From assembly GCF_030013595.1 (NCBI RefSeq), contig NZ_CP122769.1: DNA of 64,000 bases. One strand, 5' to 3'. This stretch comes from Escherichia coli. Its GTDB lineage: Bacteria; Pseudomonadota; Gammaproteobacteria; Enterobacterales; Enterobacteriaceae. Positions 8,626 to 49,290 of the stretch are shown piece by piece; positions within the stretch are counted from its first letter, which is position 1, and every line of letters begins with the position of its first letter. A program made the position numbers and the translations under genes. The notes beneath the pieces were generated by a model that was given only the letters and a program-made list of their open reading frames with translations, made no database searches and was not told the DNA's origin.

Positions 8626-8847
8626 ATGACTCAGATAAAAACTTACCGTGTAGAACATGAAAAAGTCGGTGCGATGCATAAAGTCCGTATTTTCGGACGT
8701 GTTGGTGAAGTTATAAGCAATGATAGCCCTCAGGAAAGAATCTTCCGCGAAGTCACTATAGCGGAGGGTAATAGCCAGCAGGCTGCGTTACTTGTAGATA
8801 ACTACATACAGCGTCTTGAGAATAATGGCTTCACGACTGAAGCATAA
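8626..8847 (+). CDS. hypothetical small protein (73 aa)
   Basis: ORF with strong RBS AAGGAG upstream; no recognisable motifs. Confidence 0.4.
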   Translation: MTQIKTYRVEHEKVGAMHKVRIFGRVGEVISNDSPQERIFREVTIAEGNSQQAALLVDNYIQRLENNGFTTEA

Positions 8848-8852
8848 ATGTT

Positions 8853-8876
8853 GAGGGCCCCCGGGCCCTCTTTCTT
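8853..8876 (+). terminator. palindrome GAGGGCCCCCGGGCCCTC followed by TTTCTT
   Basis: Perfect GC-rich palindrome directly after the stop at 8847, followed by a T-rich run. Confidence 0.45.
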
Positions 8877-8960
8877 AAATTCTGCGTTGTGGGTTTCTCC
8901 CTGTCTTCTGCACCGCAGAAGGCATTGAGAAACTCACAATGCCAGATAAGAGAGATCATC

Positions 8961-10193
8961 ATGACTTATGCATCCCCGGCTCTTCGTCGTAATCCACAGG
9001 AAGTATCTGAACACTTTATTAAACTCGTTCATGCTCGAATTGCTGAAGTGTCTGGCTGGAAGTATATATTCGAAAGAATACCTGCTTTCAAAGACGCTTG
9101 TGCAAAAGCCCCGAGCCAGGTTCCTTGCCCGTTTACTGGCGCAGGGAAATCGAAGTTTCGTTTCCGACAAAAAGACCTTTATACCGGATGTGCGATCCAT
9201 AATGACTTTCCGGTAAATGAGTTTTGCGACGGAATTGATGTTCTGGCGAAATATTATGAATTAAGTAAAACGCAGACTTGCAAAAAGATTCTCTCAGATT
9301 TTTTCGGGATGGATCTGCATGCTCCGTTAACTGACGCCGACATTGAAAATGAACGACGCTATAAATCAGCAGTTCGTGCCACAGAAACTCTTGACCGAGA
9401 GGAAGTGGCAAAGCGAATGCGAAAACTTGATGTGATGTATCACTATACCGGTGAAATCAAGCCTAATACTCCTGTTGCTTTGTACCTCCGTAATCGTGGG
9501 ATCTCCCGCTTACTGAGTCACTTACCAAAGGATTTAGGCTTTAATAACCGGATCTACTATTGGGATAAAGATAAGCAGAAATCGATTATCTATCCGGGAA
9601 TGATTGCGATCTATCGTGACACCCGAGGTCGGCCTCTGACTATTCATAGAACATACGTAGACAAAAATGGTGATAAGGCACCTGTAGAAAATCCAAAGCT
9701 GATGATGAAGCCTCCTGCCGATATGACAGGTGGCTCAATTCAGTTGTTTGACCCTCACTATGATTCAGGTAGTTCGACCTGGACACTGGGAGTGGCTGAA
9801 GGGATCGAGAACGCGCTTTCTGTTGTAGAAGCGACTTCAACACCATGCTGGGCAGCCAGCTCCGCATGGTGCCTTGAAAACGTTACTGTTCCTGATTTTT
9901 TACTGCCTCCGCCGGATGTAAAATCTATAAACTTTTATATCTGGGCGGATAAGGATATTGCTAACTCACAAGGCACTCGTGCCGGTATTGAAGCTGCTCA
10001 GCGACTTCAAAGCCGCATGGTTGAGTTTTTGGCTAAACGATATCCCGCATCAAAGCTGACAATTGAAGTCTTCGAACCAGCACAAGATATTCCTGATGGG
10101 AAAAAGGGTATCGACTGGAACGATGTTCTCCAGTTAACAGGGCAGGATGGATTCCCGATTCACTGGGCTCCTGAATGTCTTAATCAGCTGTAA
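8961..10193 (+). CDS. Toprim-domain protein, putative primase-like
   Basis: Toprim-like motifs LGVAEGIENALSV (acidic E) and IWADKDIANSQG (DxD), Cys/His-rich N-terminus. Start chosen at ATG 8961 (MTYASP...); ORF extends to 8889 upstream. Confidence 0.55.
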   Translation: MTYASPALRRNPQEVSEHFIKLVHARIAEVSGWKYIFERIPAFKDACAKAPSQVPCPFTGAGKSKFRFRQKDLYTGCAIHNDFPVNEFCDGIDVLAKYYELSKTQTCKKILSDFFGMDLHAPLTDADIENERRYKSAVRATETLDREEVAKRMRKLDVMYHYTGEIKPNTPVALYLRNRGISRLLSHLPKDLGFNNRIYYWDKDKQKSIIYPGMIAIYRDTRGRPLTIHRTYVDKNGDKAPVENPKLMMKPPADMTGGSIQLFDPHYDSGSSTWTLGVAEGIENALSVVEATSTPCWAASSAWCLENVTVPDFLLPPPDVKSINFYIWADKDIANSQGTRAGIEAAQRLQSRMVEFLAKRYPASKLTIEVFEPAQDIPDGKKGIDWNDVLQLTGQDGFPIHWAPECLNQL

Positions 10194-10226
10194 CAACGAT
10201 AACTCCCCCGCTTTTTGCGGGGGGGG

Positions 10227-10270
10227 TTATCTTATCAATATTATATTTTAAAATTGTATTGATAAGATAA
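10227..10270 (+). promoter_or_regulatory. 14-bp perfect inverted repeat TTATCTTATCAATA / TATTGATAAGATAA separated by 16-bp AT-rich spacer; candidate operator
   Basis: Read directly from sequence; follows the hairpin CCCCCGCTTTTTGCGGGGG (10205-10227) inside a 270-bp ORF-free gap. Confidence 0.4.
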
Positions 10271-10463
10271 CCGCTTTCCTTCGTGATAATTACCTGCCTT
10301 TAAGGTCTTTTCACGGCTGAGATGCTTGCTCAGTTAAATAAATGTGCGGTACTACTGGCTATGGTCGGTTGTATGACATGGTTATTCCATAAACTATTAA
10401 AACCCATAACGGGAGTATTACCGTTATGGTGATGCTCGTCGTTTTACATCGGAGAGCATTTTA

Positions 10464-10985
10464 ATGAATTTTCAAATTAACGAAGTTTTTAATAAATTTG
10501 CTGCTGTTATAAAATCGCGCATCGTCAATGAACCATCGTCATGCTATTTGCTGCATGATAATGAGATAGATATAACGATTTTGAAACATAGCATATTAGA
10601 AAATGACAGAAACCTGTTGTACGTAGTTCGTCCTTCAGGAACGTGTTTGTTGCGTTGTGACAAATATTTCTATCCGAAATATTATCTTCGTTGCCGTGGA
10701 GATTATAAGTCATTCATATATGTCCATCTTGATCTACATAGTGGTGAAGCTAAAGAAATCACATGGGAGCAAGCAGACGATATGCTGTCTAGTCCAGGAA
10801 AACCCCCATTAAAAGGGAATCTTGGACGATTTGAGTATATAAAAGTTGTGGTTGAGGACCTTCGTATTCGAGGTTACGCTGATTATCTTCCTGCGTATAA
10901 TCTTGATGACCTTCGCCGTTTTGCCTTACAGGACGACCGCCCATCCCTTGTCAGATACATTGACAATGTCATGGCAACGGTCTGA
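10464..10985 (+). CDS. hypothetical protein
   Basis: 173-aa ORF with RBS GGAGAG upstream; no recognisable motifs. Confidence 0.45.
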   Translation: MNFQINEVFNKFAAVIKSRIVNEPSSCYLLHDNEIDITILKHSILENDRNLLYVVRPSGTCLLRCDKYFYPKYYLRCRGDYKSFIYVHLDLHSGEAKEITWEQADDMLSSPGKPPLKGNLGRFEYIKVVVEDLRIRGYADYLPAYNLDDLRRFALQDDRPSLVRYIDNVMATV

Positions 10986-11063
10986 TTGATTGCTAATTGA
11001 TTTACATATTTTCCCTGATGGCCAACCTGCATCAGGGAGGCCTCAATAACGAATGGAGGCTGT

Positions 11064-11942
11064 ATGAAGTTAGCTACGGACCTGGTAAAAGCTATTTTGA
11101 TTAGAAATGGCGTTGAACCAGTAAATATAAGCGAATCATCTAAGTTATCTTTGAAACAACCACTGACAGAACTTAAATTCAGTTTATATTTGCGAACTGA
11201 GCATTTATCTCACTTCCTACCCGGTTATGTTTATTCTATAAAAGAATGTCCACTGTCATATGACATCGGGATCGAAATTCAGAAAATCTTCGAAAGTTTA
11301 CATTTGTTAAACGAAGAATTTGAATCCCTCGGTTTTGTTTCTGTATGGATAGAAATGCATCAAAGCATTTTTGAACAAAGTCGGTTTAAGAAAAGTAACT
11401 TTACTTTTCGGGAGGAAGAGGTCGAGCTTGCTAAAGGGCTTGTTTGTTCTCACAATTCACAAATAAGTAATGCGGCTTATTTCTGGCTTCAGCACTTTGA
11501 GGAGTTTATGATTTATGTTCGTAATAAGCTTATCGACCTCTTTCGAGAGGCCTATGACCTGATCCTTGGAATGCAGCAAGTATTTTTCATTCGGGAAAAG
11601 GAAGAGCTGTTGAAAACTATAAGTTATGGCGATGAGCTGTATGAGGTGAAATTCATGGCGGCTGAGCTTTACTCTATCGAACAGAACTTAAAGTGTTCTG
11701 AATCGATAAGTACAAAATCTCAAGCTTCGGCATATATTAACCGCATCCGTGAGTTTGTGCGTTCGGGGTGGAGGCAGGGCTATATAGTCTGCCATCATAA
11801 GCGAAGTAATCAAATTTCATCATTGTCATTACCGATGTACTTGAAAGATACGTCAGGCCGAAGTGCTCGAAAGCGAGTAAAACGTCTTATATCTTCTACA
11901 GTTTGTGGTAGAAATAAAGATTTAGGTCTTACAGATTTTTAA
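11064..11942 (+). CDS. hypothetical protein
   Basis: 292-aa ORF with RBS GGAGG upstream, preceded by stem-loop CCCTGATG...CATCAGGG; no recognisable motifs. Confidence 0.45.
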   Translation: MKLATDLVKAILIRNGVEPVNISESSKLSLKQPLTELKFSLYLRTEHLSHFLPGYVYSIKECPLSYDIGIEIQKIFESLHLLNEEFESLGFVSVWIEMHQSIFEQSRFKKSNFTFREEEVELAKGLVCSHNSQISNAAYFWLQHFEEFMIYVRNKLIDLFREAYDLILGMQQVFFIREKEELLKTISYGDELYEVKFMAAELYSIEQNLKCSESISTKSQASAYINRIREFVRSGWRQGYIVCHHKRSNQISSLSLPMYLKDTSGRSARKRVKRLISSTVCGRNKDLGLTDF

Positions 11943-13016: not shown

Positions 13017-13688
13017 ATGAATGCTATACAAAAGTTAGTTGAATCTATTCTTGTTAAAATGGGTTTTGTTGGCGCTGTAGTGGAAAATATATATTTGGAT
13101 TCAAAACCATTTCGGCATATTCGATTTGTGGCTGATATTCCAGTAATATCTTTTCTACCTCATTTGGTGAAATATCTTAAGGGTGCAGACCATCTTTACA
13201 GTGGTAACGATGATTTGCATCCTCTTTTCATTTATTTTTCCGAAGCGGCTACATTAAAAGCAGGTCCTGTAAATCTCGCGAACTTTCGTTTTGAAGTTTC
13301 TATAGCTTCAACTCATTTACGACTGGTCTCAGAGCAGCCTGATTTGCTTTTCAAAGGATTTAACCGGGATAATCTAGAATACGTTTATTACCGCTCAGAT
13401 TTGGCCTCTAGGGATCTTATACTAGGCCTTGTTGAACACGGTTCTCCTTTCATAAAACATCTACATGGACTTATACAAAAGCGAATTTTAAACGAGTTCT
13501 CTCTGATTTTTTCTGTTCTTGAAAAGATTTTAGAAAGCGCGAAGCCACAAATTCTTGCTTGCTTCCATAGTGTTGATTATGAAATGAACGTAAAAATAAT
13601 AGCCGAAGCTATACCTGAAACTGTATCTAATCAGATAGTCACATCTGATTATATAGTTAATGTTAGCGCCAATGATATAAGACTGTAA
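13017..13688 (+). pseudogene. 5' part of a gene interrupted by the IS21-family element
   Basis: Stop codon TAA (13686-13688) lies inside the first bases of the IS end TGTAATTCGCC; the reading frame resumes in the same frame after the element (15787 onward). Confidence 0.5.
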
Positions 13689-13761
13689 TTCGCCATTTGG
13701 GTTGTCCGCTCCACCCAACATGTTGTTTCCTTGAGGTTCTCACACCAGAAAGGACATCGAC

Positions 13762-15731
<1,970 letters not shown>

Positions 15732-15786
15732 TCAAATAGCGGACATTAAAAATGGCGAAAACCGGCCATAAATCTTGGCGTTGACA

Positions 15787-26154: not shown

Positions 26155-27708
26155 TTAGTTTTCAACTAACTGAACGACGACCAGCCTGCCGCCTTCCTCC
26201 TTTGACAGAACAAACTGAGCGTTATTCGTCAGTTCAATTTTTTCCCCAATGGCAATCTGTCGTTTATCCGGTAATGACATAAGCCCATTTATGCCTTCAT
26301 TTACTAACCACCACTGATCGTTATGGAAAACAAAATACCCAACTCGTTTCCTTTGTGCATCGGTTGTGCGCTCATTTGGCGCAATGAGGCGATTCACATG
26401 CCACGCATAGATTGACTGCCCGCTCCACACCATCAACCGGTGGTCGTCAGGACGATAACTGCCTTCCTTTCGGGATGAATATAAATTTAGAACCGGTAAT
26501 TTACCCTTGTATGGCGTACCGCAGTAGGGACAAACCGGCTTTGTCTTACCTGAGAAAACGTACCATTTCTGTTCACACGCCTTGTTCTGGCAGGGCTGTA
26601 TCAGATCGACTGTTTTAACCAGGGCACTTTCCCACTCATCGGCGGTCGGGCGTTTATTGGCATCGTGTAAGCCATCAATAAAGGCGCGTTCAAACAAAGG
26701 CGTCAAATAAGGGCCCATGATGGTGTAAGGAATTTTCTCCGGGTCAGCCCAGGGCAGTGAAAAGGAGGATATCTGACTGACTTTGACTGCATTGCTTTTG
26801 TCTGTCGGATGTTCAATGAAGAGTGCCTTCTCACCCATAGATAAGGTCTCATCACGTACTTCATCCGACATGTCATGTATTTTTCCGCCACGTAGCGGAT
26901 GACGGAAGAACAGATACATGTAGATAAGCACCGACAGCGCATGACGGTCAGTAGAAATGCTTGGCAATACGCGGTTCGGATCCTCTTTGGAAAGATGGCT
27001 GGTTTTCACCACTTCCGGAGCGATAAAATCCGGGGTGCCCACGACGTCGGGAGGATACTTTCCAGGGACAACCAGGCCGTCTACGTCAATGATGCAGGCA
27101 TGTCCCATTTCTGGATCGATAAGCACGTTTTTATAGCTTAGATCGCTGTGACAGAGACCTGCCGCATGCATCCTTCTGACGGCTCTTGTTAGCAGCAGAC
27201 AGACCTTGAGATAGGTAAGCGTATTGCCTCGTTCACGTGGGTCGAGAAATTTATTCTGGTTGCTGGCGCTGGCAAACCATTTGCCTTCCTTTTCACGGCC
27301 TTTTATGCCAAGAAAATCATCGTTTTTAGAGCCGTATTTAAAGAAAAAGTAGCTTTTGTAGGTTGGAACCACGATGCCGATTTTATCCCCATGCTCAACA
27401 ACGTGGGTCGGCCAGCAAAACAGGTCCTTCCAGTATTCACCTCCGGACTGGCCAAAAATGTTTTGCCTGTAGCGTCCGGTGATCATATCAATCCGATCCC
27501 GGGCCTGCTCGTTCTGCGGTTTATGATAAAAAGCGACGACGTATGATTTATCAGGCGAGAAGTAAACATCCTTCATCGAGCCCGAACCAATTACCTCGTC
27601 AACATACTGGACTGTTTCGCCGTCCTTTGTTTTGCACGTAACAATATTTGCCATATTGATCACCGAAGAAGCGTATCCCTTACCACAACACCGCAATAGT
27701 GCGGTCAT
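26155..27708 (-). CDS. Hanks-type serine/threonine protein kinase with C-terminal zinc-ribbon
   Basis: Gly-rich loop VIGSGSMKDVYF, catalytic loop HSDLSYKNVLI, IDVDG (DFG-equivalent), GTPDFIAPEV (APE motif); CQNKACEQ...CPYCG zinc ribbon. Alternative start at 27654 (MANIVTCK). Confidence 0.8.
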   Translation of the reverse strand: MTALLRCCGKGYASSVINMANIVTCKTKDGETVQYVDEVIGSGSMKDVYFSPDKSYVVAFYHKPQNEQARDRIDMITGRYRQNIFGQSGGEYWKDLFCWPTHVVEHGDKIGIVVPTYKSYFFFKYGSKNDDFLGIKGREKEGKWFASASNQNKFLDPRERGNTLTYLKVCLLLTRAVRRMHAAGLCHSDLSYKNVLIDPEMGHACIIDVDGLVVPGKYPPDVVGTPDFIAPEVVKTSHLSKEDPNRVLPSISTDRHALSVLIYMYLFFRHPLRGGKIHDMSDEVRDETLSMGEKALFIEHPTDKSNAVKVSQISSFSLPWADPEKIPYTIMGPYLTPLFERAFIDGLHDANKRPTADEWESALVKTVDLIQPCQNKACEQKWYVFSGKTKPVCPYCGTPYKGKLPVLNLYSSRKEGSYRPDDHRLMVWSGQSIYAWHVNRLIAPNERTTDAQRKRVGYFVFHNDQWWLVNEGINGLMSLPDKRQIAIGEKIELTNNAQFVLSKEEGGRLVVVQLVEN

Positions 27709-29320
27709 CGTGGTTCCCTGTGGAGAAAAAGTTAAGCCAGTCGCCTAACCTCTCAGGCGCAATACTGGCGTCTGTAAGGACAGGGATGAGCTCATCAAGG
27801 AGACGGGTCCATTTTTCGTCACTGCGAAGCCCGTTATCTGTCTCAAACAGAGGGTCTGATACGCCATCTGTCATGAGGATCAAGTGAGATACATCATTCC
27901 ATTTACCCACGCTGATGCGGCCGCTAAACGAGGGGTCTGCGATAATGCTCTGGTCAAGAAAGCGGGTTTGTCCTGCGTATTCTCCGCTATCGGGATTTCC
28001 CAGTATCCTGACTTTACCGGAAGGGCTGTATGCACCTATCGCACCATCACCAAGCCAGAATGCAGCCGCAAACAGCTCGTTATCAGTTCGTAGCGCTACA
28101 GTTGCCAGTAGGGTTGTTGAATAGGATTTCACAGGTTGTTCTGCACAAATGGCTTCGTTCTGGATACTGTTGACCGCGAGCGTAGCTGCCTGTTTAAAAT
28201 GATGAAGCATGGCGTTTATGGTTGCCTGCTGATCGCTCCCTTCCCACGCCGTGATGTGCTGCTTTAGATGGACGCCTTTCAAACCACTGAGCTGATTGAA
28301 AAGGTAATCGCCAGCCGTTTGGACTGCAATCCGGGAGCCTTCCCGGGAATTTACCGCACTACCGGCCCCGTCTGCGACCAGCATGACAGACCATCCTGTT
28401 TCCTGGCAGTGGTTGATATAGAAGTCGTCATCTCTGAAGCTCCCGGCATGCTCATGAGATCGTCCCCGGCGACTGGCGGCAGCAATACGTATGTCACCCC
28501 TGACCAGGCCAGCAGCGTCCAGATGGGACTTAGGGTAGGAAGCGTCTGCTGGTGGCTCTACCACCTTCCACAGGCTTCTCGGATCGGGATTGACTATAAA
28601 AAGCTGTTTTGTTTCGCATTCGTCGTGCGAAGCGCATGACCAGAGTACTGAAAGCTCTATATCGCCGCTTTCGGTGGGTGTACCTGTCAGCAACTTATGC
28701 TCTTTGTCAAAGGTCAGGCCAATGTTCCTGGGAAAGACAACGTCCCTGACAGTAGCCTGCTGGCCCTCATCCAGAACTATAGCAACCGGCGAAGAGAAAC
28801 GTTCGCCTGCGCGGGCGTTGGGAATAACTATTTTAGCTCTCGGGGGAACGGCAGGTGGCACAGCTAATCCGGCCCGCTGCTGGCCTGTCGGTATCTGCCC
28901 GGGTTTTAATACCAGGGAAGACAGGTTTTCGTCTTCCCTCTGTGCTGGTTTATCAAATTCGTAATAAGGCATCAGCTTCCAGAACGGAGGATGAGGTTCA
29001 TTTTCTGGCAGGGGTTGCAGTAATGGTGTATCGGTAGCGTCAATGCCCGGGTTATCAGCATCACTTACGACCGTTTGTTGCTGATCGGAAAGGCTGGATG
29101 CTGACGAGGGGGCGATCTCTGCGTCGTTATAACCTTCGCTAACCCGCGCAGATAAACCCTGTGCAAGGCTCTCAATCCGCTCTTTAAGCCGCATAATCTC
29201 TTCAGTAAGGGAAGGGTCGTGCGATAGAAGAAAAAGCCGCTCACCTTCTACAGGGTGGCCCAGCTCAGACAGCACTAAGCGGATAATCTTCTCTTCAAGT
29301 AAAACATTTTGCGACATCAA
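27680..29320 (-). CDS. PP2C-family serine/threonine phosphatase with N-terminal extension
   Basis: PP2C-like motifs MLVADGAGSAVNS and LILMTDGVSDPL; stop overlaps kinase start region and start overlaps upstream vWA gene stop. Confidence 0.75.
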   Translation of the reverse strand: MMSQNVLLEEKIIRLVLSELGHPVEGERLFLLSHDPSLTEEIMRLKERIESLAQGLSARVSEGYNDAEIAPSSASSLSDQQQTVVSDADNPGIDATDTPLLQPLPENEPHPPFWKLMPYYEFDKPAQREDENLSSLVLKPGQIPTGQQRAGLAVPPAVPPRAKIVIPNARAGERFSSPVAIVLDEGQQATVRDVVFPRNIGLTFDKEHKLLTGTPTESGDIELSVLWSCASHDECETKQLFIVNPDPRSLWKVVEPPADASYPKSHLDAAGLVRGDIRIAAASRRGRSHEHAGSFRDDDFYINHCQETGWSVMLVADGAGSAVNSREGSRIAVQTAGDYLFNQLSGLKGVHLKQHITAWEGSDQQATINAMLHHFKQAATLAVNSIQNEAICAEQPVKSYSTTLLATVALRTDNELFAAAFWLGDGAIGAYSPSGKVRILGNPDSGEYAGQTRFLDQSIIADPSFSGRISVGKWNDVSHLILMTDGVSDPLFETDNGLRSDEKWTRLLDELIPVLTDASIAPERLGDWLNFFSTGNHDDRTIAVLW

Positions 29321-30357
29321 CCTCTCCCTCTGTTTACGTCGAAGTTAGTGTTTCCGCCATCATTGCTGAATGACAGACCTGTTTCACACCACGGGCAGAT
29401 CACGTCATCCGGGCCGTCAATGCACAGCAATTTTCCGCATGAGCACAGGGCAAACGCACTGGCATTACCGCAGTGAGGGCAACCCGGTACGCCATGCAGT
29501 TCGCTGGTGTTTACCTGCAAACCGGTAGCGGTGGCATCTGACCATGCAAAATAGTCCTCATCGATGGGATAGCATCCGGCAATATTAAAGCTGTTCAGGT
29601 TCAGGCTGAAATCGAGCCCGGAAATCCTTGCTGGTGGCCGTTCATACTTCATCAGATACGGACGACGGGTCTTGCTGCAACGGCCGGTAAGCGTAACGCA
29701 GTTTTCGTCGTACGCTTTTACTGGCTCGTCCTTGGCCAGCCGGACTATGTATTCAGTCTGGCTGAGCTCAGGTTGTTTGTCGTCTCCGACGCTGCGGCTG
29801 TGCGCCGTAACCGAGGCTGTGATCCATTTGATGAAGCGGGTAAAGTCCCCTTCCTGAGACTCGGTGAACAGCATGACATTCTCTGTCAGTTGCCGCAGGG
29901 TATTCAGGTCCGCTGACGGCCCCAGGCCAACGGCAATGAGATTCACTTTACTCGCGTAGTGATCCTTCCAGCGCTTCACTTCTGCGGTTGTGTCGTCAGT
30001 CGGACGTCCGTCGGTAAGGAGATACACGACGGGTTTCCAGTCGCCTTTAGCCTCATGAGTGGTTTTTCTGACCTGGGTATCAATTTGTACGGTCAGCTCA
30101 CGCAATGCGGCCCCAAGGCTCGTACCGCCGCCAACGGGAAGGCGGGGAGGGTAGAACGAGGCAATTTCGTGAAGAGGTACAATCGTACGGGCTACACCGG
30201 CAAATGCGATTACCGAAACCCAGGCTGTTTCAAGTGCGTGTGGATCCTTTCTTAAATCTCCGATGATCATTTGCAGACCATCAGTCATTTTTTTCAGGTT
30301 TTCACCAATCATGGACTCTGAACAGTCCAGGACAAAAAACACGGGAAGGCGTCTCAT
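29317..30357 (-). CDS. TerY-like vWA protein with C-terminal zinc ribbon (third TerY paralogue)
   Basis: Start set at MRRLPVFFVLDCSESM (RBS GAGGAAA); MIDAS motifs DCSES and YLLTDGRPTDD; C-terminal CPHCG...CSCG...CPWC. Confidence 0.75.
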   Translation of the reverse strand: MRRLPVFFVLDCSESMIGENLKKMTDGLQMIIGDLRKDPHALETAWVSVIAFAGVARTIVPLHEIASFYPPRLPVGGGTSLGAALRELTVQIDTQVRKTTHEAKGDWKPVVYLLTDGRPTDDTTAEVKRWKDHYASKVNLIAVGLGPSADLNTLRQLTENVMLFTESQEGDFTRFIKWITASVTAHSRSVGDDKQPELSQTEYIVRLAKDEPVKAYDENCVTLTGRCSKTRRPYLMKYERPPARISGLDFSLNLNSFNIAGCYPIDEDYFAWSDATATGLQVNTSELHGVPGCPHCGNASAFALCSCGKLLCIDGPDDVICPWCETGLSFSNDGGNTNFDVNRGRG

Positions 30358-30442
30358 AATTTTCCTCGTACGGCTGGTACGGCCAGCAGAAAACGTTGCT
30401 GTACAGAAAGGTGCTGCCCGGAAAGCAGCACCTTTCTGTCTG

Positions 30443-31084
30443 TCAGAGCACCAGCTGGATTTCTGGTGGAGGAGGGGGAAGGGTATCAGTTCCGTTATTG
30501 ATCCCCGCGCTTGTGCTGCCGGAAGACACGCTGGCCGATACCCATTTAAAGAAACCTGCAAACGCGGTTGAATCTAGCGTCTCCAGAGACACAACCTTAT
30601 CGGTGAGCTGTTTTAAGTGCTCATGGCCTGCTTTAGGACCAACGGCGCAGGCAATGATGGATCCGAATCCCCGGCCGCGAATCGCTTTTACCGCTTCACC
30701 GTACGCCAGGGCATCAGAAGGGGTTCCATCAGTCATCAGGAATACCAGAGGACGCCAGTCTCCTTTTGTATCACCATCTGAGCGACGTACATCCCGTTCA
30801 ACACACTGCATCAGACATTCAAGGGCAGCACCGGTGAACGTCCCGCCTGCGCTTGGCACAACGATGTCAGAAAACTGGAAGTCTTCCAGCGGCGTGAGAG
30901 GAATGAACTCACGCGCCTCATTGTCATAGGTGATAATGGAGATATGAACGCTTTCGAGGGCGTAGGGATCCTGGCGAAGAGCGCTAAGCATCGCCTGAAT
31001 TCCAACGTTAACGGAATGGATGGACTCACCGCGCATCGAGCCGGATGTGTCGATAACAAGGTAAACAGGCAGGCGGCGCATCAC
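30443..31084 (-). CDS. TerY-like vWA protein (second TerY paralogue)
   Basis: MMRRLPVYLVIDTSGSM and FLMTDGTPSD MIDAS motifs; 213 aa; start overlaps terX stop. Confidence 0.8.
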   Translation of the reverse strand: MMRRLPVYLVIDTSGSMRGESIHSVNVGIQAMLSALRQDPYALESVHISIITYDNEAREFIPLTPLEDFQFSDIVVPSAGGTFTGAALECLMQCVERDVRRSDGDTKGDWRPLVFLMTDGTPSDALAYGEAVKAIRGRGFGSIIACAVGPKAGHEHLKQLTDKVVSLETLDSTAFAGFFKWVSASVSSGSTSAGINNGTDTLPPPPPEIQLVL

Positions 31085-31722
31085 ATGTAATTCCTCAGGT
31101 GCGAGACAAACGAATCTGATTCTGAAGGCTCACCAATTGCCCTGAGTTTCCAGCCTGTAGCCTCGCGTATCAGCTCGGCAAAAACCATGGAGCGCTGGCT
31201 GGCGAAGGCGGGTCCGCCAGAAAGATCGAATCGTGCCATTTCAATATTACGGGCATCTACTGCCCGGATGAAGGCATTCTGAACTTTACCAAAGTGCTGC
31301 TGGAGCTTTTCACCATTGTAGATCTGAACGATGAACACAATTTTCTCGTACTGAGCGTCAAGGGAATTCAGGCGCACAATAATTTGCTCATCGTCACCAT
31401 CACCGGCTCCGGTTCGGTTATCGCCCGTCAGCCAGATATTTCCTGACTTATGGCGAAGGCTGTTGAAAAAGATGATATCGCCATTCACAAGCGTTGGTTT
31501 ACCATTTTCCACATTGCCGAGATCGGTCACCTTTCCGGCTGAATTACACAGGAAAGCGATCACATCAAGGTCGTATTCTTCTTCTTTTTTACCAAAGATC
31601 CCGCCGAGGAAACCTTTCTTTTCCTCATTAATATCCCAACCCAGGCCGATAGTAACGGACGAGAGATCGTATTCATTTTTTTTCAGGCTTACGCCCTGGC
31701 CTTTGCTCAGACTGACAGACAT
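31081..31722 (-). CDS. terX: TerD-family protein TerX
   Basis: TerD-domain signature GDNRTGAGDGDDE and N-terminal [13 protein letters not shown] typical of TerD/TerX proteins. Confidence 0.85.
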   Translation of the reverse strand: MSVSLSKGQGVSLKKNEYDLSSVTIGLGWDINEEKKGFLGGIFGKKEEEYDLDVIAFLCNSAGKVTDLGNVENGKPTLVNGDIIFFNSLRHKSGNIWLTGDNRTGAGDGDDEQIIVRLNSLDAQYEKIVFIVQIYNGEKLQQHFGKVQNAFIRAVDARNIEMARFDLSGGPAFASQRSMVFAELIREATGWKLRAIGEPSESDSFVSHLRNYM

Positions 31723-31744
31723 GACATCCCCTTAATTAATAAAA

Positions 31745-32383
31745 TTATAAGACCACGTTTACTTCTGGCGGCGGCGGTGGCAGGTCTTCAAGACCGATCA
31801 CTTCTTTTTTGCTGGACTCCACTTTCTGACTGCCTACCGAAATGCTCGCACTGACCCATTTAAAGAAAGCTTTAATCGTCGAACTGTCAGCTGTATCGAG
31901 CTGAACCACGATTTCAGTGATTTCTTTGAGGACGCTGGTATCGGCATCATGCCCGGCTGCACATGCCACAACAACGCCGGTTCTGGCCGCTTTAAAGTCA
32001 TTCAGGCCTTTACGCCAGTCATCATTCGGACTTCCATCCGTCATCAGGAATACAAGGGGACGCCAGTCACCTTTAGTGTCAGCCGTCGTTTTCTGTACTT
32101 CTTTGGCAATGGAGCTGGCCGTCAGGGTAAGCGCTGCGCCAAGAGAGGTGGTGCCGCTGGCTGTTAGTGCTGGCATCTGGAAACTCAGGAGGTCTGTCAG
32201 GGGGACTGCCTGTCGGGCTGAAGAATCAAAGGTGATCACTGACACGTAAGCCGTTTCGAGTGCATACGGATCCTGTTTCAGCGTGGTAAGCAGCGTCTGA
32301 ACGCCATTCTTAACCGCTTCGATAGGCTCTCCGTGCATAGAGCCGGACGTGTCGAGTAGCAGATATACGGGTAAGCGTCTCAA
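31745..32383 (-). CDS. terY: TerY vWA protein (first TerY paralogue), TTG start
   Basis: LRRLPVYLLLDTSGSM and FLMTDGSPND; no in-frame ATG at the conserved N-terminus, but TTG at 32383 is preceded by AAGGA at proper spacing. Listed ORF extends to 32464. Confidence 0.7.
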   Translation of the reverse strand: MRRLPVYLLLDTSGSMHGEPIEAVKNGVQTLLTTLKQDPYALETAYVSVITFDSSARQAVPLTDLLSFQMPALTASGTTSLGAALTLTASSIAKEVQKTTADTKGDWRPLVFLMTDGSPNDDWRKGLNDFKAARTGVVVACAAGHDADTSVLKEITEIVVQLDTADSSTIKAFFKWVSASISVGSQKVESSKKEVIGLEDLPPPPPEVNVVL

Positions 32384-32846
32384 ATGTAATTCCTTCTTAA
32401 GAGATCGGAAGAGGAGAGTAGTTTCAGGAAGAGGCCAGAGTTTGTAGATTTGATAAAACGGCACGACATCTGTCGGGTGGAGATTAAATACTCAGAAGCG
32501 GCATTAAAGAAATAAGTTAACCACCATTGAATTACCGACATGTGAATGGCCTCTTATCAGAGAAAAAAATTCAGACCGTACTGGAATATAAAATTTCTGA
32601 AAAAAACTCCGGCAAAAATAAACTTTCTTATGTATGAAAATCATCATACATCACAGATCTGCATGAATGGAGTGTAAATCGCCCAAAGATTGATGTGTAG
32701 CACAAGAGGATGTCAAGACACCAGGTTTTGTAGGCAGAAAGGCGCTGCTGACATTGCGGGAGGAGAATAGATCAAAACTCCGTCACGCAGATACAGAGGT
32801 GAAATATGACAAAACCGGGGTTTTCACCCCGGTCTGAGATTTAGCG

Positions 32847-33331: not shown

Positions 33332-34540
33332 TTAAAGGGTTAGTGGTTCAATAGGCTGAAAAATGAAGGTACTGCTCATCTTTCGAATAACCGGGTGATC
33401 GCCTAACGCTTCAACCGGATCAATGTGTTCTAAGCCTGCAAAATTTACTGACGACATCTGGCTGCGACTGCATTTGCAGGACAGGATATACTCATCCTCC
33501 AGATAGCCGGTCCGCTTACTGACCCGTTGCGTAAAGCCTGACACAATCACGTTGTCGAACGGTAGCGTATGTAAAACGATACCGACCAGGCGGAACAAGC
33601 AGCCATGGACGTGGCGGGCATAGTTTTCGCGTACGGCTTTTTGCGTCATGGCTTTTTCCGTCAGCTCCGTGCCCCGGGCATTAACGCCGTAAATCTTATC
33701 AGGGAAATCTTCAATCTCAGCTAAATCAACATCCAGCAGGACTGCTGATAGCTCCGGCTTTACTTCAAATGCAACAAGCGTTTCACGCGGCCATTCAGTT
33801 TCTGCCAGCACACCCGCCAGGTATGATTCGAAAAACGCGGCGTCTGTCCGGAACTGCTGCCGGGCATCTGCCTGAGCCGTGGCGAGCCGTTTTTCATGTT
33901 CTTCAGCCTCAAACTTCCAGTTTGCATACTGTTCGGCCCAGGCCGTCCGTTGTTGCTGGTACCGGTGCTGTCGAAGGGTATTCTCACGCTCCACATCAAT
34001 CAGCTCCTGCTGCCACCGGCGAAGATTTTCGGCGTGGCGCTCAGCTTTAGCTGATTCCGATTCAAACCATTTACCCAGAAAACTAATGCCTTCGCTCTCG
34101 GCAGGCTTTTCCGGCAATGCAAGATAGTCTGGCTTTTCTGGACGCACCGGTGCCGGAACCTGAAAAGGCGACGTTCTGTTATGCAGGTATACTGCTTCCA
34201 GCTCTGCCCAGCTGATGCCTGTTTTAGGATCCGGCGTCAGCTCGTGAATATTACGGATTGCGGTCACCGCTGACATGAGATCAGCGGCTTCCTCCTCAAG
34301 CGCCTGTCTGAGCCCCGGGTCGGTAGCCGTCCGGTTCCCACCTCCGGAACGCGCGGCCCGATCAAGCCGGGTACGGTAACTCAGCCCGGTACCGGGCAAG
34401 CCCAGATTGGCATAGGTCCCCCGGCTTCCAAAAGAAACGGAAGCACCTCTCGGCCCGACACTCAGGCTCGGTGCACCGTTACTCAGGTTGAGGCGAACAC
34501 CAGGAATAATGTTGATCGACTTTCTGAATCTGAACCCCAT
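33332..34540 (-). CDS. DUF4236-like N-terminal domain protein, function unknown
   Basis: N-terminal Gly-rich motif MGFRFRKSINIIPGVRLNLSNGAPSLSVGPRGASVSFG; charged helical middle region. Confidence 0.5.
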   Translation of the reverse strand: MGFRFRKSINIIPGVRLNLSNGAPSLSVGPRGASVSFGSRGTYANLGLPGTGLSYRTRLDRAARSGGGNRTATDPGLRQALEEEAADLMSAVTAIRNIHELTPDPKTGISWAELEAVYLHNRTSPFQVPAPVRPEKPDYLALPEKPAESEGISFLGKWFESESAKAERHAENLRRWQQELIDVERENTLRQHRYQQQRTAWAEQYANWKFEAEEHEKRLATAQADARQQFRTDAAFFESYLAGVLAETEWPRETLVAFEVKPELSAVLLDVDLAEIEDFPDKIYGVNARGTELTEKAMTQKAVRENYARHVHGCLFRLVGIVLHTLPFDNVIVSGFTQRVSKRTGYLEDEYILSCKCSRSQMSSVNFAGLEHIDPVEALGDHPVIRKMSSTFIFQPIEPLTL

Positions 34541-34550
34541 TATGATTTCC

Positions 34551-35510
34551 TTAATGATGCTGGGTCACGGTAAGTAATCTGATTCCATCAGCGCTTTGCT
34601 CGTTCTGTAACCCATAAAAACGAGCTCTGTCCAGAATGCCAGCCGCCCAGCGGCGATGTGTGGCGGGTTCACACATTGCTCCCTGCGACTTAAACACGGC
34701 CTGGGTAGAGTTCAGGATCCGCAGAGCGTCAGAATGCTCACCCTGAGTGACCATCAGCGCGTTTTGAATGACCTCTATCTGACCCGGGTGAATGGCCGTT
34801 TTCCCAACAAGCCCATGTGCCATATCAAGAGCCAGCTCTCTGGCCATTACGGCATGATCGTCAATATGCTCACATACGGGCGCGGTCAGGGCAAAATCAC
34901 GCGGGCCGAAGACCGAAACGAGCATTTTGATGACGTAGCCCATCGGGCTGTCATACAGCGTCAGGTCCCGGGGACGGCGAAGCGACACAACGTTCATAAG
35001 ATCGTTGCCGCCGATTCGAAGCGCAATAATGCGGTCGTGGCAGGGATGTTCCACCAGACGGGTGGCCAGCTCCCGCATCTGAACCACGTCAAAGACGTCT
35101 TCTGTTTCCAGCGTTGGCATCATGCACAGGTGAGTCCCGCCCATGATATCCCACCATTCAGCTAACGAACTGAGGGTAAATTTCGGCAACACAAACCCGT
35201 CGACAGCGGAAAGATCATAATGCGCTTTTAACCATCTGCCCATTTCGGCATGCCGGGGGCGAATGAACACCAGAGGCCAGTCATTTTTACCCAGGCTATG
35301 CATGCTGTTACTGAGCTCGTGCAGCAGGTGCTCCAGATTTTTGAGGGCGACGGGGATGTCTGCTTCACTGACAGCATCCTCCAGGCAAATCACCAGAGAG
35401 CGCAAACCCGGGATTTTCCCGTGCAGGACGGCATCAGCAATATCTTCCCGTGTTGCAGGCATGTATAGCGTGGCTCCCAGATTCCAGGGAGAAAGACGAT
35501 TTTTCATCAA
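34551..35510 (-). CDS. HpcH/HpaI aldolase / citrate-lyase beta-subunit-like TIM-barrel enzyme
   Basis: 319-aa product with CitE/HpcH-like features (LVICLEDA, ...RIGGNDL...); start overlaps upstream stop. Family assignment by recollection, not search. Confidence 0.6.
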   Translation of the reverse strand: MMKNRLSPWNLGATLYMPATREDIADAVLHGKIPGLRSLVICLEDAVSEADIPVALKNLEHLLHELSNSMHSLGKNDWPLVFIRPRHAEMGRWLKAHYDLSAVDGFVLPKFTLSSLAEWWDIMGGTHLCMMPTLETEDVFDVVQMRELATRLVEHPCHDRIIALRIGGNDLMNVVSLRRPRDLTLYDSPMGYVIKMLVSVFGPRDFALTAPVCEHIDDHAVMARELALDMAHGLVGKTAIHPGQIEVIQNALMVTQGEHSDALRILNSTQAVFKSQGAMCEPATHRRWAAGILDRARFYGLQNEQSADGIRLLTVTQHH

Positions 35511-36586
35511 AGTACCTTCTTGATAATGGTTACAGCCCGATACTGGCCGAGGGTTCCCCCCATTTCTGTAACAACTATTCCCTTTTCACGAGCAAGCCCT
35601 ACAAGCAAGGCAACGTCCGGGTCGTCAATAGAACGCACAAATACATGGTCCGGTACCCGACGTAATACAGCCCGGGTTGCTTCAGCAATACCGGGTTTTA
35701 TACGATTGACGCTGTCCACTTTAAATTCATCGGCCAGGAACGCGATAACGTCGCGACTTGTCTGCCATAAGATCCGGGCTGACTCCGTATTCCAGCTCAG
35801 GGGAGCGAGGGATGACGGGGTTAACTTCTTACGGAAATGAGCGACGGTATCGACAAGCATCCGGCTGCATTCGAATTCACTGAGATGCTCGCAAACCATG
35901 CACCCGTGTAATCCTTCAGAGGACCACACTGACCGGGAGATCAGGCCTGACACCGGCGCACCCATGATGCCAAAAGGAATGAGCCAGTCATCATCACTGG
36001 CTGCAAGCCAGGAGCAGCCACAGGGATCGGCCAGGACAACCAGTCGCGGCTGCTCAGGATAGCCCGGGCGATCTTTCAGTGCGCGTACAAGCTCTCCGGT
36101 AATTGCGCCTTTACCTGTCCATCCGTCAACAAAGACAATACCGCTGGTACCATGCCGCTCTTCAATGACGTCGAGGGCTGCACCGTCAATTCCACGATCC
36201 CGGATAATGCTGATACCGTAATGCCATGAGGTTTTCCCCATGTCACGCAGGGCCTGGTGCAGCATAACGCCGAGCGGCACGCCAGCCCTGACAAGACTGG
36301 CCAGTACAATGGGCTCATCACCAAAGCGTTTGGCCAGAGCAATAGCGAGCTGTGTGACTTCTTTTGCAAGTCTCTCTGCGCCCCGATCCAGCGCCCGGTG
36401 AAACAAATCAAGATGCCATTGTGTTGGCGCTGGCTCCTGACTGAGCATGTCCGAATAATGTTTCTTCCCTGACTGAATCAGCTCTTCTTTTTGCTCAACC
36501 GGCGTCATCTCAATGACAACCGGCTTTAGCAGAAATTCCACGTCACCGGGCTGGTATGAGCCGGTAAATGTGTCATGTGGCTGCAT
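35507..36586 (-). CDS. conserved ter-associated protein with degenerate phosphoribosyltransferase-like motif
   Basis: Start set at ATG 36586 (MQPHDTFTG), one nt after the HAD gene stop; motif GIVFVDGWTGKGAITGEL resembles a PRTase PRPP loop. Listed ORF extends to 36652. Confidence 0.5.
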   Translation of the reverse strand: MQPHDTFTGSYQPGDVEFLLKPVVIEMTPVEQKEELIQSGKKHYSDMLSQEPAPTQWHLDLFHRALDRGAERLAKEVTQLAIALAKRFGDEPIVLASLVRAGVPLGVMLHQALRDMGKTSWHYGISIIRDRGIDGAALDVIEERHGTSGIVFVDGWTGKGAITGELVRALKDRPGYPEQPRLVVLADPCGCSWLAASDDDWLIPFGIMGAPVSGLISRSVWSSEGLHGCMVCEHLSEFECSRMLVDTVAHFRKKLTPSSLAPLSWNTESARILWQTSRDVIAFLADEFKVDSVNRIKPGIAEATRAVLRRVPDHVFVRSIDDPDVALLVGLAREKGIVVTEMGGTLGQYRAVTIIKKVL

Positions 36587-36587
36587 T

Positions 36588-37361
36588 TTAATTTTCTCCA
36601 AAAATTCGCTGTGAAATGGCATCTGCAAACTGACTCTGACGCGGGATGCCAAACCAGCTGCACAGTTTCATAAAACGATGATCGCTCAGGCTGTCGCCCA
36701 GGCCAATTACGGGGAAGACTCCGCGTTCAGCCCGAAGTTTTTCAAGCAGCCATCTGACTGCCAGCCCTTTCTCAACCGGGGTGGGAAGCCAGGCCACGTT
36801 ATTACTGTTGCGGTGGATGTAGAAGCCCTCGGTCGGAAACACCGTTTCTATCTCATCTGCAATGGCATTGAGCTCGTCAAGGCGGGTGCTGTCGCGGTGC
36901 TTCATCACCATATAAACCGCCGTTTCACAGTATTCGAAGTTCAGCCTTGCCCAGGCATTGATCCCTTTTGCGTCCATCATTTCAGTGATCAGACGCTGCA
37001 TCGATGTCAGCTTTTCCTGGTAGGGAGCCAGCTGGCCAAGCATATGGGCCTTCCACTCCTCGTCGGGTTTGCCTTCAGGCGTGAGAATGACGGCCCCGTG
37101 CGTGGTGATTGCCCAGGAGTGGAAAGGGATCCGGACGCGGCTGATTTCTTCAGTTCCCCGGGCGGTAACAGGTATGAGTTCAGCCTGCTCCAGGAGCCAG
37201 TCCACCAACATGGACTGTTCTTCCGTCATAAAGCTTCGTGGATTCAGGGTGCGATCAACGGCACCGGTACGGAATGGCTCCAGGGCCAGCTCGTCCACCA
37301 TTTTACGACGGGTCTGAAAGAGCGTGTCGTCAAGGTCGCTCAGAACAACGGGTTTATTCAT
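36588..37361 (-). CDS. HAD-superfamily hydrolase
   Basis: Start set at MNKPVVLSDLDDTLFQ (HAD motif I DxDxT) with RBS GGAGA; listed ORF has a 112-codon upstream extension overlapping the PRTase gene. Confidence 0.65.
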   Translation of the reverse strand: MNKPVVLSDLDDTLFQTRRKMVDELALEPFRTGAVDRTLNPRSFMTEEQSMLVDWLLEQAELIPVTARGTEEISRVRIPFHSWAITTHGAVILTPEGKPDEEWKAHMLGQLAPYQEKLTSMQRLITEMMDAKGINAWARLNFEYCETAVYMVMKHRDSTRLDELNAIADEIETVFPTEGFYIHRNSNNVAWLPTPVEKGLAVRWLLEKLRAERGVFPVIGLGDSLSDHRFMKLCSWFGIPRQSQFADAISQRIFGEN

Positions 37362-38502
37362 AGGTAACAATCTCCACGACGGGCGCAACCTCAGCCAGGG
37401 CTTTAAGAAGCTGCGTGTCAATACTTTCTGCGGGTGTCTCAGTACACACAAGAATACGGTCAAACTGCTGGTGGGCGACGTTATAGACAAAATTGGGGAT
37501 GCCCAGCCCGTAGTTATCCGTAAAGGAAATGGCGGACTCAATGGCATAACCAACGGCGATAGGGGAGCGGGTGGTCGAACCATAAAGTGCCTGTGCTCCG
37601 GCAGCTTCGAGCCGTTCAGCAAGCAGGAACGGCTCCCAGACGAATTCCCCGGTCCCGAGAACCAGAATACGTTCCCCCTTGCGGACGGAGACCTCATGGC
37701 CGAGATCGGCCGCAGGTGCGAGCATCCCCAGTCGACCCCAGGACTGTTTTCCCAGGATGTCCCATTCTCCGCGTGAAGTTACGTTGACTTTCGGCATGTC
37801 CGGGACAGGTGCATCAGGTAATGGGGTCCATCCCCACTGACCGCTTACAAGCGAAACCGAAGTGACGGGCAAGGATGTGCGCTCCGACAGGGCGTTGCTA
37901 CTCCAGTCGGTAAGCGTAACGGCGATAACCTGTTCAATATGTTGAAGCTTGCCGGTATTACGCAGGGCAGAAAGCAGGTTAATAAAGGTATTACCGGTGG
38001 TTGCCTCGTCATCAATCAAAACCAGCGTTCGTGCGTTGGTAACACGACGTCTTTTCTCTTCATCATCTGGCAGATAGATCAGATGATCGGTGGCGTGGCT
38101 GTGTTCTTCCTTGAACTCGCAAAGTAACGTGCCATCAACCGGGTGACGGGTAGAGGTCAGATAGACAGATTCACGATGCTGGTGGCGCACTTCATCAAAC
38201 ACACCGGCCCCTAGCCCAACGGCGGTTTCAGCCATACCGATAAAAAGTACGGGCCCTGTCAGCGTTGCGGGGAACTGGCTGGCAAGCTGTCTGTAGGCCT
38301 GCCGCATGACTGAGGGTGGCACGGGAATGTGCCTGCCGAGTACTTTGCTGACAAACAGAAAGGCGCGTTTCGGGTTACGTCTTTCAGCGATATCAAACAG
38401 GTCATCGAGCGAAACATCACCCTGGTCGCGGGTTACCTGTATCGTACCGCATGAGAGGGTACGGCGATAAATCATATCTTCGAGGGTATCAGACATAAAC
38501 AC
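37354..38502 (-). CDS. phosphoribosyltransferase (PRTase) family protein
   Basis: PRPP-binding motif RTLVLIDDEATTGNTF. Confidence 0.7.
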   Translation of the reverse strand: MFMSDTLEDMIYRRTLSCGTIQVTRDQGDVSLDDLFDIAERRNPKRAFLFVSKVLGRHIPVPPSVMRQAYRQLASQFPATLTGPVLFIGMAETAVGLGAGVFDEVRHQHRESVYLTSTRHPVDGTLLCEFKEEHSHATDHLIYLPDDEEKRRRVTNARTLVLIDDEATTGNTFINLLSALRNTGKLQHIEQVIAVTLTDWSSNALSERTSLPVTSVSLVSGQWGWTPLPDAPVPDMPKVNVTSRGEWDILGKQSWGRLGMLAPAADLGHEVSVRKGERILVLGTGEFVWEPFLLAERLEAAGAQALYGSTTRSPIAVGYAIESAISFTDNYGLGIPNFVYNVAHQQFDRILVCTETPAESIDTQLLKALAEVAPVVEIVTYE

Positions 38503-38505
38503 GCC

Positions 38506-39564
38506 TTAATTCAGATGGTTAGAGAGTGATTCCGGGTAAACGATGACATCTGTGATGGATCTCACTGCAACCGGAGAAAAGGTATTTCTGGCGCTCTGGA
38601 TCACCGCATCTTCAGACATCAGACCGAGCTTAAAGGCAGCAAACAACCCGGGAAGGTTCACCCCGCTGTGAAGGGTATAACCCACCCCGCCTGACGGACG
38701 CATGTTGGTTTCAAGCAGCACCGGGTTGCCATTCACATCGTTTCGCGTCTGAACATTCACCAGCCCGTCGGCCTTCATAACCCGGGCGCAGTCACAAGCC
38801 AGTTCCCAGGCGCTTCCTTCGTTTACCAGATACTGGATAGCCCCTTCCTTACGGCGTCCCACGGCTGCGAGTATTTCGCCCTTATCCGCGAGGATATCGA
38901 CGGAAAATTCCGGGCCTGGCAGGTACGGCATCAAAACAAGGGGTTTAAACGACTCAGAAGCCGATGCTGCTGCAATATACTGTTGCGGACTGACCAGACG
39001 ATGTTCGGGATGATTAAAGACGGCCATGGGCGAAGCACTGTCATCAAAGCGCCAGAATCCCATGCCATAGATACCCGTCACCGGCTTCACGCATACCGGG
39101 CTGTCCGAGAACGGCGGGGCCGCGAGGTGCGTCTTTAATTCTGCCAGCGTATTCACCCGCCAGGACGGTACGACCGGGAGCCCGTTTTGCTCCATAAACT
39201 GAGCAAAAGTAACTTTTTCGTCAGCCAGAGTTAACCAGTCGACGCCTGTTGCACCGGTAGTAAGGGTGGCTCCGGTCGATTCAATGGCTGAACGGTGTTC
39301 TTCAAACCACTGGCTGTTACGGCCAGTATGAATATGGTGGATGCCGTAGGTCTGAATGGTTTCCTGAATAAACTGAAGACGTTTTTGAGGATCTTCAGGT
39401 TCAGTCAAAGAATAATCGGCAACGGAAAGAATTTCATGTCTTTCGTTACGGTGGGAGGCAAATACGGTAATAGCAAAATTATTTTTTTGTGCAAATGATT
39501 TTACCCCCTGAATAATATCTCGCTGGGAGGACAAACCTTCCATAAACCAAATTTTCTTGTTCAT
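38506..39564 (-). CDS. ATP-grasp family enzyme
   Basis: 352-aa product with ATP-grasp-like organisation; first gene of the minus-strand operon, divergent from terZ. Family assignment by recollection of ter-linked clusters. Confidence 0.6.
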   Translation of the reverse strand: MNKKIWFMEGLSSQRDIIQGVKSFAQKNNFAITVFASHRNERHEILSVADYSLTEPEDPQKRLQFIQETIQTYGIHHIHTGRNSQWFEEHRSAIESTGATLTTGATGVDWLTLADEKVTFAQFMEQNGLPVVPSWRVNTLAELKTHLAAPPFSDSPVCVKPVTGIYGMGFWRFDDSASPMAVFNHPEHRLVSPQQYIAAASASESFKPLVLMPYLPGPEFSVDILADKGEILAAVGRRKEGAIQYLVNEGSAWELACDCARVMKADGLVNVQTRNDVNGNPVLLETNMRPSGGVGYTLHSGVNLPGLFAAFKLGLMSEDAVIQSARNTFSPVAVRSITDVIVYPESLSNHLN

Positions 39565-48989: not shown

Positions 48990-49286
48990 ATGATCAATAA
49001 TGATTACCCGTTAAACACGCTCAACCAGCTGCGTCCCTTGCTCATTGGTTTTCGCAAGGCGAATGGCCTGACGCAAAAAGACCTGTCCGAAAGGTTAGGC
49101 GTCACTCAACAGACATACTCACGTCTGGAAGCCAACCCTGCCAGTGCGAGCATTGAACGGCTATTCAAGGTGTTTTCCATCCTGGGCGTAAAAATCAGCT
49201 TCTCCTCGGCAACCACCTCTTCAGAGAGGAAGCAGACGGAAGAAATGCTTAAATCAAACTCACCTGCACGACAGGAGGATTGGTAA
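48990..49286 (+). CDS. hipB: HipB antitoxin (Cro/C1-type HTH)
   Basis: HTH segment GLTQKDLSERLGVTQQTYSRLE; immediately upstream of hipA with 4-bp gap. Confidence 0.85.
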   Translation: MINNDYPLNTLNQLRPLLIGFRKANGLTQKDLSERLGVTQQTYSRLEANPASASIERLFKVFSILGVKISFSSATTSSERKQTEEMLKSNSPARQEDW

Positions 49287-49290
49287 CGAT

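Follow-up and report, generated by a model that had tools for sequence, protein, structure and literature searches.

The window analysed here is a 64,000-nt stretch of the Escherichia coli contig NZ_CP122769.1 (assembly GCF_030013595.1), and positions 26155-32383 on its minus strand contain the operon terY1-terX-terY2-terY3-PP2C-kinase, which belongs to the ter locus (resistance to tellurite, phages and colicins) of IncHI2 plasmids. Judged by its domain content, the region represents the TerY-P triad in its canonical form sensu Anantharaman et al., 2012, with TerX and a pair of short TerY paralogues in front of it. In this triad a vWA protein with a TerY_C domain is combined with a PP2C phosphatase and a Hanks-type kinase that bears a C4 zinc ribbon; the identity of the triad, which had been proposed in an initial annotation made from the DNA letters alone, was borne out. 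We consider it on balance probable that the module acts on a cation-dependent vWA/TerD assembly as a reversible Ser/Thr phosphorylation switch, and our confidence is high only for the identity part of this reading. The sequence, the annotation, the gene names and the TerY-P interpretation are all already known from the literature and databases. The names terY3Y2XY1W are in use for the IncHI2 locus (PMC11003894), and a role as a metal-sensing phosphorylation switch has been hypothesised for the ter-linked triad (Anantharaman, 2012, according to the summary in PMC11090510). Our additions are an FHA-like fold in the kinase, conserved TerY tails, natural gene fusions and the lack of homology to the validated defence system of the same name; these refine the question and leave the overall picture unchanged.

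All six minus-strand genes, including the TTG start of terY1, were confirmed, and their boundaries coincide with the Prokaryotic Genome Annotation Pipeline (PGAP) annotation of a 100%-identical plasmid. In the order of transcription, the operon comprises terY1 (31745-32383), which encodes a 212-aa vWA protein and carries AAGGA in front of its TTG start; terX (31081-31722), encoding a 213-aa TerD-family protein as assigned from Pfam and the translation; terY2 (30443-31081), encoding a further 212-aa vWA protein; terY3 (29317-30357), whose 346-aa product combines a vWA domain with the Cys-rich, metal-binding TerY_C domain; the PP2C phosphatase gene (27680-29317; 545 aa); and the kinase gene (26155-27654; 499 aa). 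The starts of the longest open reading frames were rejected for the kinase (27708) and for terY3 (30561), as the homologues measure 499-501 aa and 341-353 aa, respectively. Pfam searches verified the domain assignments of all six proteins (TerD, VWA, VWA + TerY_C, PP2C_2 and Pkinase), and an NCBIfam search of the six returned no specific family, only generic matches below threshold.

The intergenic junctions from terY1 to the kinase gene measure +22, -1, +85, -1 and +25 nt. The earlier claim that stops and starts overlap or abut throughout, implying translational coupling, was therefore overstated: 1-nt TGATG overlaps were found at two junctions only, terX/terY2 and terY3/PP2C, whereas the other genes are separated by gaps. 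The spacing is still tight enough for a single predicted transcript, and in this sense the triad is joined to terY1-terX-terY2 as one tightly spaced transcription unit. The 85-nt spacer between terY2 and terY3 was considered as a conserved element and rejected, because the spacer in other lineages is 10-34 nt. The operon is taken to begin at terY1, since a strong intrinsic terminator is predicted after terW (32812-32835, minus strand; a 10-bp GC-rich stem followed by a T-run) and the distance from terW to terY1 is 463 nt. The untranslated leader/promoter region was placed at 32384-32811 (minus strand) from the gene spacing and a promoter scan, the latter of which gave no good sigma-70 consensus site upstream of terY1. 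Rfam and tRNA scans of the entire window were empty.

TerY1, TerY2 and TerY3 (in its N-terminal half) are paralogous vWA proteins with 41-49% mutual identity. The Pfam VWA domain was found in TerY1 and TerY2 and at aa 6-160 of TerY3 (E = 3e-13), and the metal-ion-dependent adhesion site (MIDAS), DxSxS...T...D, is intact in all three proteins (DTSGS, DTSGS and DCSES in TerY1, TerY2 and TerY3, respectively, with invariant T79 and D116). TerY3 continues into TerY_C at aa 217-346 (PF15616, E = 4.5e-53), and the same VWA + TerY_C architecture is shared by 2,526 TerY3 homologues of 343-353 aa. TerX contains a TerD domain (PF02342, E = 6.5e-52), and its translation includes GDNRTGAGDGDDE, an acidic motif of the GDN..G.GDDE type that is predicted to bind Ca2+.

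The two short TerY proteins also resemble each other at their C-termini, LPPPPPEVNVVL in TerY1 and LPPPPPEIQLVL in TerY2 (encoded at 31745-31790 and 30443-30490, respectively). Both conform to the near-invariant tail LPPPPPE[VI]x[VLI][VI][LV]-COOH, with FFKWVSASV and a Ser/Thr-rich linker in front of it, and the tail was likewise seen in the related loci L002, L004, L006 and L011. It is kept across Enterobacterales, Chromatiaceae and metagenomic relatives, and TerY3 has TerY_C in its place. The tail looks like a docking peptide.

The PP2C_2 domain of the phosphatase spans aa 284-529 (nt 27731-28468) and was covered along the entire model (1-209/209, E = 1.8e-46). The phosphatase motifs DDDF, ADGAG, TDG and DDRT are present, and the sequence matches of the catalytic domain to solved PP2C structures were marginal. 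An N-terminal extension of ~280 aa consists of a helical region, a linker (aa 31-150) and an Ig-like repeat (aa ~167-236), and this part of the protein was weakly matched to the Ig-like repeats of SraP. When compared with an IncHI1B plasmid, aa 31-150 were hypervariable (37-53% identity), whereas the catalytic domain was ~95% identical. Nucleotide identity to the same plasmid (L014; PP2C at 13526-15163) falls along the operon from 99% in terY1 to 84-90% in the PP2C and kinase genes, a gradient that suggests a recombination mosaic. The ratio of nonsynonymous to synonymous substitution rates (dN/dS) in this comparison was 0.04-0.32, indicating purifying selection on all six genes, and the value for the kinase was 0.05.

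The kinase is composed of a catalytic domain of the eukaryotic-like (Hanks-type) fold (aa 1-347; 26614-27654, minus strand), a C4 zinc ribbon (aa 352-382; 26509-26601, minus strand) and a C-terminal domain with an FHA fold (aa 385-499; 26158-26502, minus strand). The first two had been recognised in the initial annotation and were confirmed, but the third had been missed. Pfam Pkinase matched the C-lobe only (E = 9e-10); phmmer gave no match of the N-lobe in PDB, and the family profile aligned to the C-lobe only, the N-lobe being too divergent to be aligned by sequence with kinases in PDB. An AlphaFold (AF2) model built from 53 homologues reached a pLDDT (predicted local distance difference test) score of 95.5 and a predicted template modelling (pTM) score of 0.94, and its best Foldseek neighbours were ASK1, CaMKII, NIK, phosphorylase kinase and GSK3. 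The motifs align to YRDLKPEN, DFG and APE of PKA, and the catalytic residues are conserved among the 53 homologues: H169 in 46, D171 in 49, N176 in 45, D190 in 41 and D192 in 49, with Glu at the last position in four more. A212-P213-E214 of the APE motif is conserved in 49-53 of them. The zinc-ribbon residues C355, C360, C375 and C378 are invariant in 41/41 homologues. Residues 385-499 are predicted to adopt the FHA beta-sandwich fold; this fold is an addition of the present analysis, as it is not mentioned in the accessible literature, in which we also found no link between TerY and FHA.

We compared the gene order around members of the kinase family, which comprises 339 representatives (50% clustering, E < 1e-30) and is 65-68% identical between Enterobacterales, Chromatiaceae and Betaproteobacteria. 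The order VWA-TerD-VWA-VWA+TerY_C-PP2C-kinase recurs with near-identical protein lengths in Thiorhodococcus and Betaproteobacteria. In Thiorhodococcus it reads TerD-VWA(212)-TerD(214)-VWA(213)-VWA+TerY_C(351)-PP2C-kinase(499); one extra TerD is the only addition to this locus, which is devoid of TerB, TerC and biosynthetic genes. The six-gene block of a betaproteobacterium follows TerC-TerD and precedes HAD and two phosphoribosyltransferase (PRTase) genes, and Ignatzschineria, in which TerY1 is missing, keeps the remaining genes beside a full ter locus. Distant members retain TerY_C-PP2C-kinase only, located near TerD, TerF-like vWA, AIM24, PIF1 helicase or biosynthetic genes. Altogether, the triad adjoins the kinase family in six of seven independent contexts (L002/3, L004/5, L006/7, L008/9 and L011/12, with L010 as the exception). 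This distribution indicates that the three-vWA arrangement is an old conserved form and no peculiarity of the IncHI2 plasmid. The three vWA paralogues singled out earlier as notable are indeed present, but they are no local oddity, being already named terY1, terY2 and terY3 and kept together in distant proteobacteria. A metagenomic locus (L011/L012) encodes a second, highly divergent kinase paralogue right after the first kinase (10001-11452; 32% identity, no Pfam match), together with four vWA genes, AIM24 and a PIF1-type helicase.

Natural fusions occur in the kinase family, namely vWA-kinase (P0129), vWA-vWA-kinase (P0185) and kinase-Ig-like-PP2C (P0125). Such fusions argue for direct physical coupling and speak well for an action of the proteins on, or together with, one another. 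Further fused representatives are P0162 and P0234, in which the partner of the kinase is a P-loop GTPase-like region in one and a multi-pass membrane region in the other.

Across 6.3 kb the region shows 100% identity to IncHI2 plasmids, among them pMUB-MIN9-1 and the plasmid carried by strain KL53, and the window is co-linear with pMUB-MIN9-1 at 15787-52464 with 99.99% identity. Next to the operon lie terW, the biosynthetic genes linked to ter (DUF4236, C-C lyase, StiP, PRTase and ATP-grasp), which occupy 33332-39564 immediately upstream, and terZABCDEF. Of 5,426 complete E. coli genomes, 345 have the block, for the most part on plasmids, and it also occurs in 1,301 PLSDB plasmids from Escherichia, Enterobacter, Salmonella, Klebsiella, Citrobacter and others; with so many records, its occurrence is far beyond chance. 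All six reading frames are intact in ~92% of the 1,301 plasmids. In the Salmonella IncHI2 plasmid p77_84_18, the mcr-1.1-pap2 colistin-resistance cassette sits inside the kinase gene (L013, 1668-4087; corresponding to ~26155-27654 of the window), and other plasmids harbor IS100 inside the block or truncated copies of it.

The components, their conserved residues, the synteny and the fusions were observed in this analysis, and from them we infer a substrate, a signal and an output as follows. The three MIDAS-containing vWA proteins and TerX, with its Ca2+-binding-type motif, would form a divalent-cation-dependent scaffold. The kinase would phosphorylate a component of this scaffold, most plausibly the Ser/Thr-rich segment of TerY between the vWA domain and the tail, so that the TerY proteins are likely to be substrates or scaffold. 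The zinc ribbon and the FHA-fold domain may dock the kinase to its target or to the phosphorylated product, following the logic of Rad53/Chk2, and PP2C would reset the phosphorylation state. The predicted output is modulation of the adjacent Ter stress-response machinery (TerZ/A/D/E, TerB, TerC and the linked biosynthetic genes) and not tellurite resistance itself. Subclones with terW and terZABCDE reach a tellurite minimum inhibitory concentration (MIC) of 5 mM, equal to that of the host of the wild-type plasmid, while terBCDEF alone gives 2 mM (PMC11003894). As terW and terZABCDE suffice for the wild-type MIC, the module is not required for tellurite resistance.

Several observations weigh against such a switch. 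The position of the canonical beta3 (VAIK) lysine is occupied by Tyr or Phe in 50/53 kinase homologues, and kinase activity may therefore rest on a relocated lysine, either K28 in GxGxxK (42/53) or K122 (48/53). The glycine loop (aa 23-45; window ~27520-27588) reads GSGSMK, with the conserved Lys where the third Gly is usual, and the GxGxxK28 position resembles in sequence the relocated lysine of WNK kinases. At the other end of the protein, Pfam FHA matched none of the 41 kinase homologues, and of the canonical phosphothreonine-binding set (GR, SxxH and NG) only H419 and N452 are conserved; for these two reasons we call the domain FHA-like and not a member of the FHA family. Its binding of phosphopeptides is uncertain, since GR and SxxH are not evident. 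The Thiorhodococcus locus implies that the remaining Ter machinery is not a strict requirement of the six-gene module, and the interruptions in some IncHI2 plasmids show that the module is dispensable for plasmid maintenance. Finally, we found in the literature no direct experiments on the IncHI2 kinase or phosphatase, nor a measured substrate, signal or phenotype of the module.

The module might alternatively be a self-contained anti-phage/anti-colicin immunity system that contributes to the phage inhibition by IncHI2 plasmids, which we regard as unlikely but as the strongest competitor of the phosphorylation switch. TerY-P-like cassettes of three genes (vWA/PP2C/kinase) protect E. coli against T7-like phages (Gao et al., 2020, according to secondary sources including PMC11090510), and in a study of P. 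aeruginosa TerY-P conferred protection against Autographiviridae, with most cells surviving. The R478 ter cluster has historically been tied to phage inhibition and colicin resistance (Whelan, 1995, as cited in PMC11003894). Immunity would also agree with the existence of the six-gene block without TerB/TerC, with the hypervariability of the PP2C N-terminal linker between closely related plasmids, and with the PADLOC matches of the window kinase, which were weak and confined to the defence kinases mad6, PD-T4-6 and MkoA. On the other hand, the window proteins are set apart from the validated system of E. coli G3/10 (L015), which was recovered via its first 399 nt given in a supplementary table. 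In G3/10, where the cassette adjoins a type I restriction-modification (RM) system, the vWA protein measures 277 aa, the PP2C 239 aa and the kinase 561 aa. The G3/10 proteins, serving as the positive control, matched the PADLOC models TerY (PDLC02224), PP2C (PDLC02222) and STK_OB (PDLC02223) with E values of 1e-108 to 1e-265, whereas TerY1, TerY3, PP2C and the kinase of the window gave no match to these models even at E <= 10. Pairwise BLASTP between the two systems was non-significant for all three protein pairs (best E 0.047 for the kinase, 0.28 for vWA and 0.20 for PP2C). No TerY_C domain was found in the G3/10 vWA protein, and the window kinase lacks the C-terminal OB fold that is a feature of the system of Gao et al., 2020 and PADLOC. 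At the level of sequence comparison, the two systems named TerY-P thus share an architecture and no detectable homology, and for this reason the anti-phage phenotype is not transferable from one to the other by homology. Moreover, the identity of the kinase across proteobacterial classes and its low dN/dS are unusually conservative for a defence gene, and the module is flanked by plasmid backbone and ter genes, with no defence island. The initial annotation had stated that the TerY-P arrangement has no experimentally defined function; this does not hold for the systems of that name that block T7-like or Autographiviridae phages, but it stands for the clade of the window, to which the validated G3/10 system is non-homologous.

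A bolder and somewhat less probable proposal is the following. The ter-linked module would be an autonomous cation-triggered phospho-switch constituting a second family of kinase-based phage/colicin immunity, unrelated to the validated TerY-P. It would operate via Rad53/Chk2-like kinase-FHA docking and the LPPPPPE tails of TerY1 and TerY2, and might explain part of the phage inhibition by IncHI2 plasmids.

It is less probable again that the switch is devoted to regulating the biosynthetic genes linked to ter (ATP-grasp, phosphoribosyltransferases, StiP/PELOTA, C-C lyase and HAD), whose predicted product is a nucleoside-like metabolite. Proximity argues for this idea, as the biosynthetic genes are found immediately upstream in the window and, elsewhere, directly downstream of the kinase: HAD and two PRTase_3 genes in L004, PRTase_2/StiP/lyase in L006 and ATP-grasp/PRTase/StiP/lyase in L008. 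The Thiorhodococcus block, however, lacks any of these genes, and the metabolite and its regulation are predictions. That the module is a dispensable passenger without current function on the plasmid is very improbable, as the natural disruptions (mcr-1-pap2, IS100 and truncated copies) and the dispensability for tellurite resistance are outweighed by the intact frames in most plasmids, strong purifying selection, conserved catalytic and metal-binding residues and the retention of the block across bacterial classes.

Other features of the window lie outside the operon. Relative to pMUB-MIN9-1, the window contains a 2.1-kb GC-rich (0.53) insertion at 13662-15786, placed at the end of the backbone open reading frame 13017-13688 and encoding the IS21-family proteins IstA (390 aa) and IstB (266 aa). 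A backbone cluster at ~4026-10200 (co-linear with L001 1-6169) encodes a vWA protein of 672 aa together with an ATP-binding protein, DUF3150 and a toprim protein, and is a vWA-containing module distinct from the ter-linked one. Downstream of terF, a helix-turn-helix (HTH) regulator and a HipA-family kinase toxin form a pair at ~48993-50616 (co-linear with L001 42839-44462), so that this plasmid segment holds two kinase-based modules.

The terY1-kinase module is carried by the IncHI2/IncHI1B megaplasmids that spread mcr-1, mcr-9 and carbapenemase genes in Enterobacterales, and its conservation extends well outside these plasmids. Concrete residues and protein pairs are now indicated by the FHA-fold domain, by the proline tails that are conserved, and by the vWA-kinase and kinase-PP2C fusions. 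Among the known systems, terY3Y2XY1 of R478 and pKL53-L, which belongs to the TerY-P triad of Anantharaman, Iyer and Aravind, 2012, has the same genes in the same order beside terW and terZABCDEF, and no difference was seen at the sequence level, the KL53 plasmid being 100% identical. The G3/10 defence system also resembles the window module, as its cassette has genes for vWA, for a PP2C-type phosphatase and for a Ser/Thr kinase arranged in the order seen here, and presumably uses the same reversible-phosphorylation logic. It differs in its vWA protein without TerY_C, its PP2C of 239 instead of 545 aa and its neighbourhood, which is a type I RM system and not ter genes. The name TerY-P now spans two protein sets that are unrelated to each other, and only the set without TerY_C has been shown to have the anti-phage phenotype; annotating IncHI2 plasmids as bearing a validated defence system would therefore be an over-interpretation.

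More distant parallels are found in the checkpoint kinases Rad53/Chk2 and in Ser/Thr protein kinase (STPK)/FHA/PP2C signalling, as in mycobacterial PknB-GarA-PstP. The resemblance is one of predicted fold and logic and not of family membership, as the FHA-like domain of the window kinase is C-terminal, follows the C4 zinc ribbon and is without obvious GR/SxxH. The type II/III-A CoCoNuT (McrBC-related) modules, compared here by description, also combine a TerY-like vWA protein, PP2C and a kinase bearing a zinc ribbon at its C-terminus (PMC11090510), but they are linked to McrBC-like GTPase/helicase/HEPN genes, whereas the window module is linked to TerD/TerC/TerB genes.

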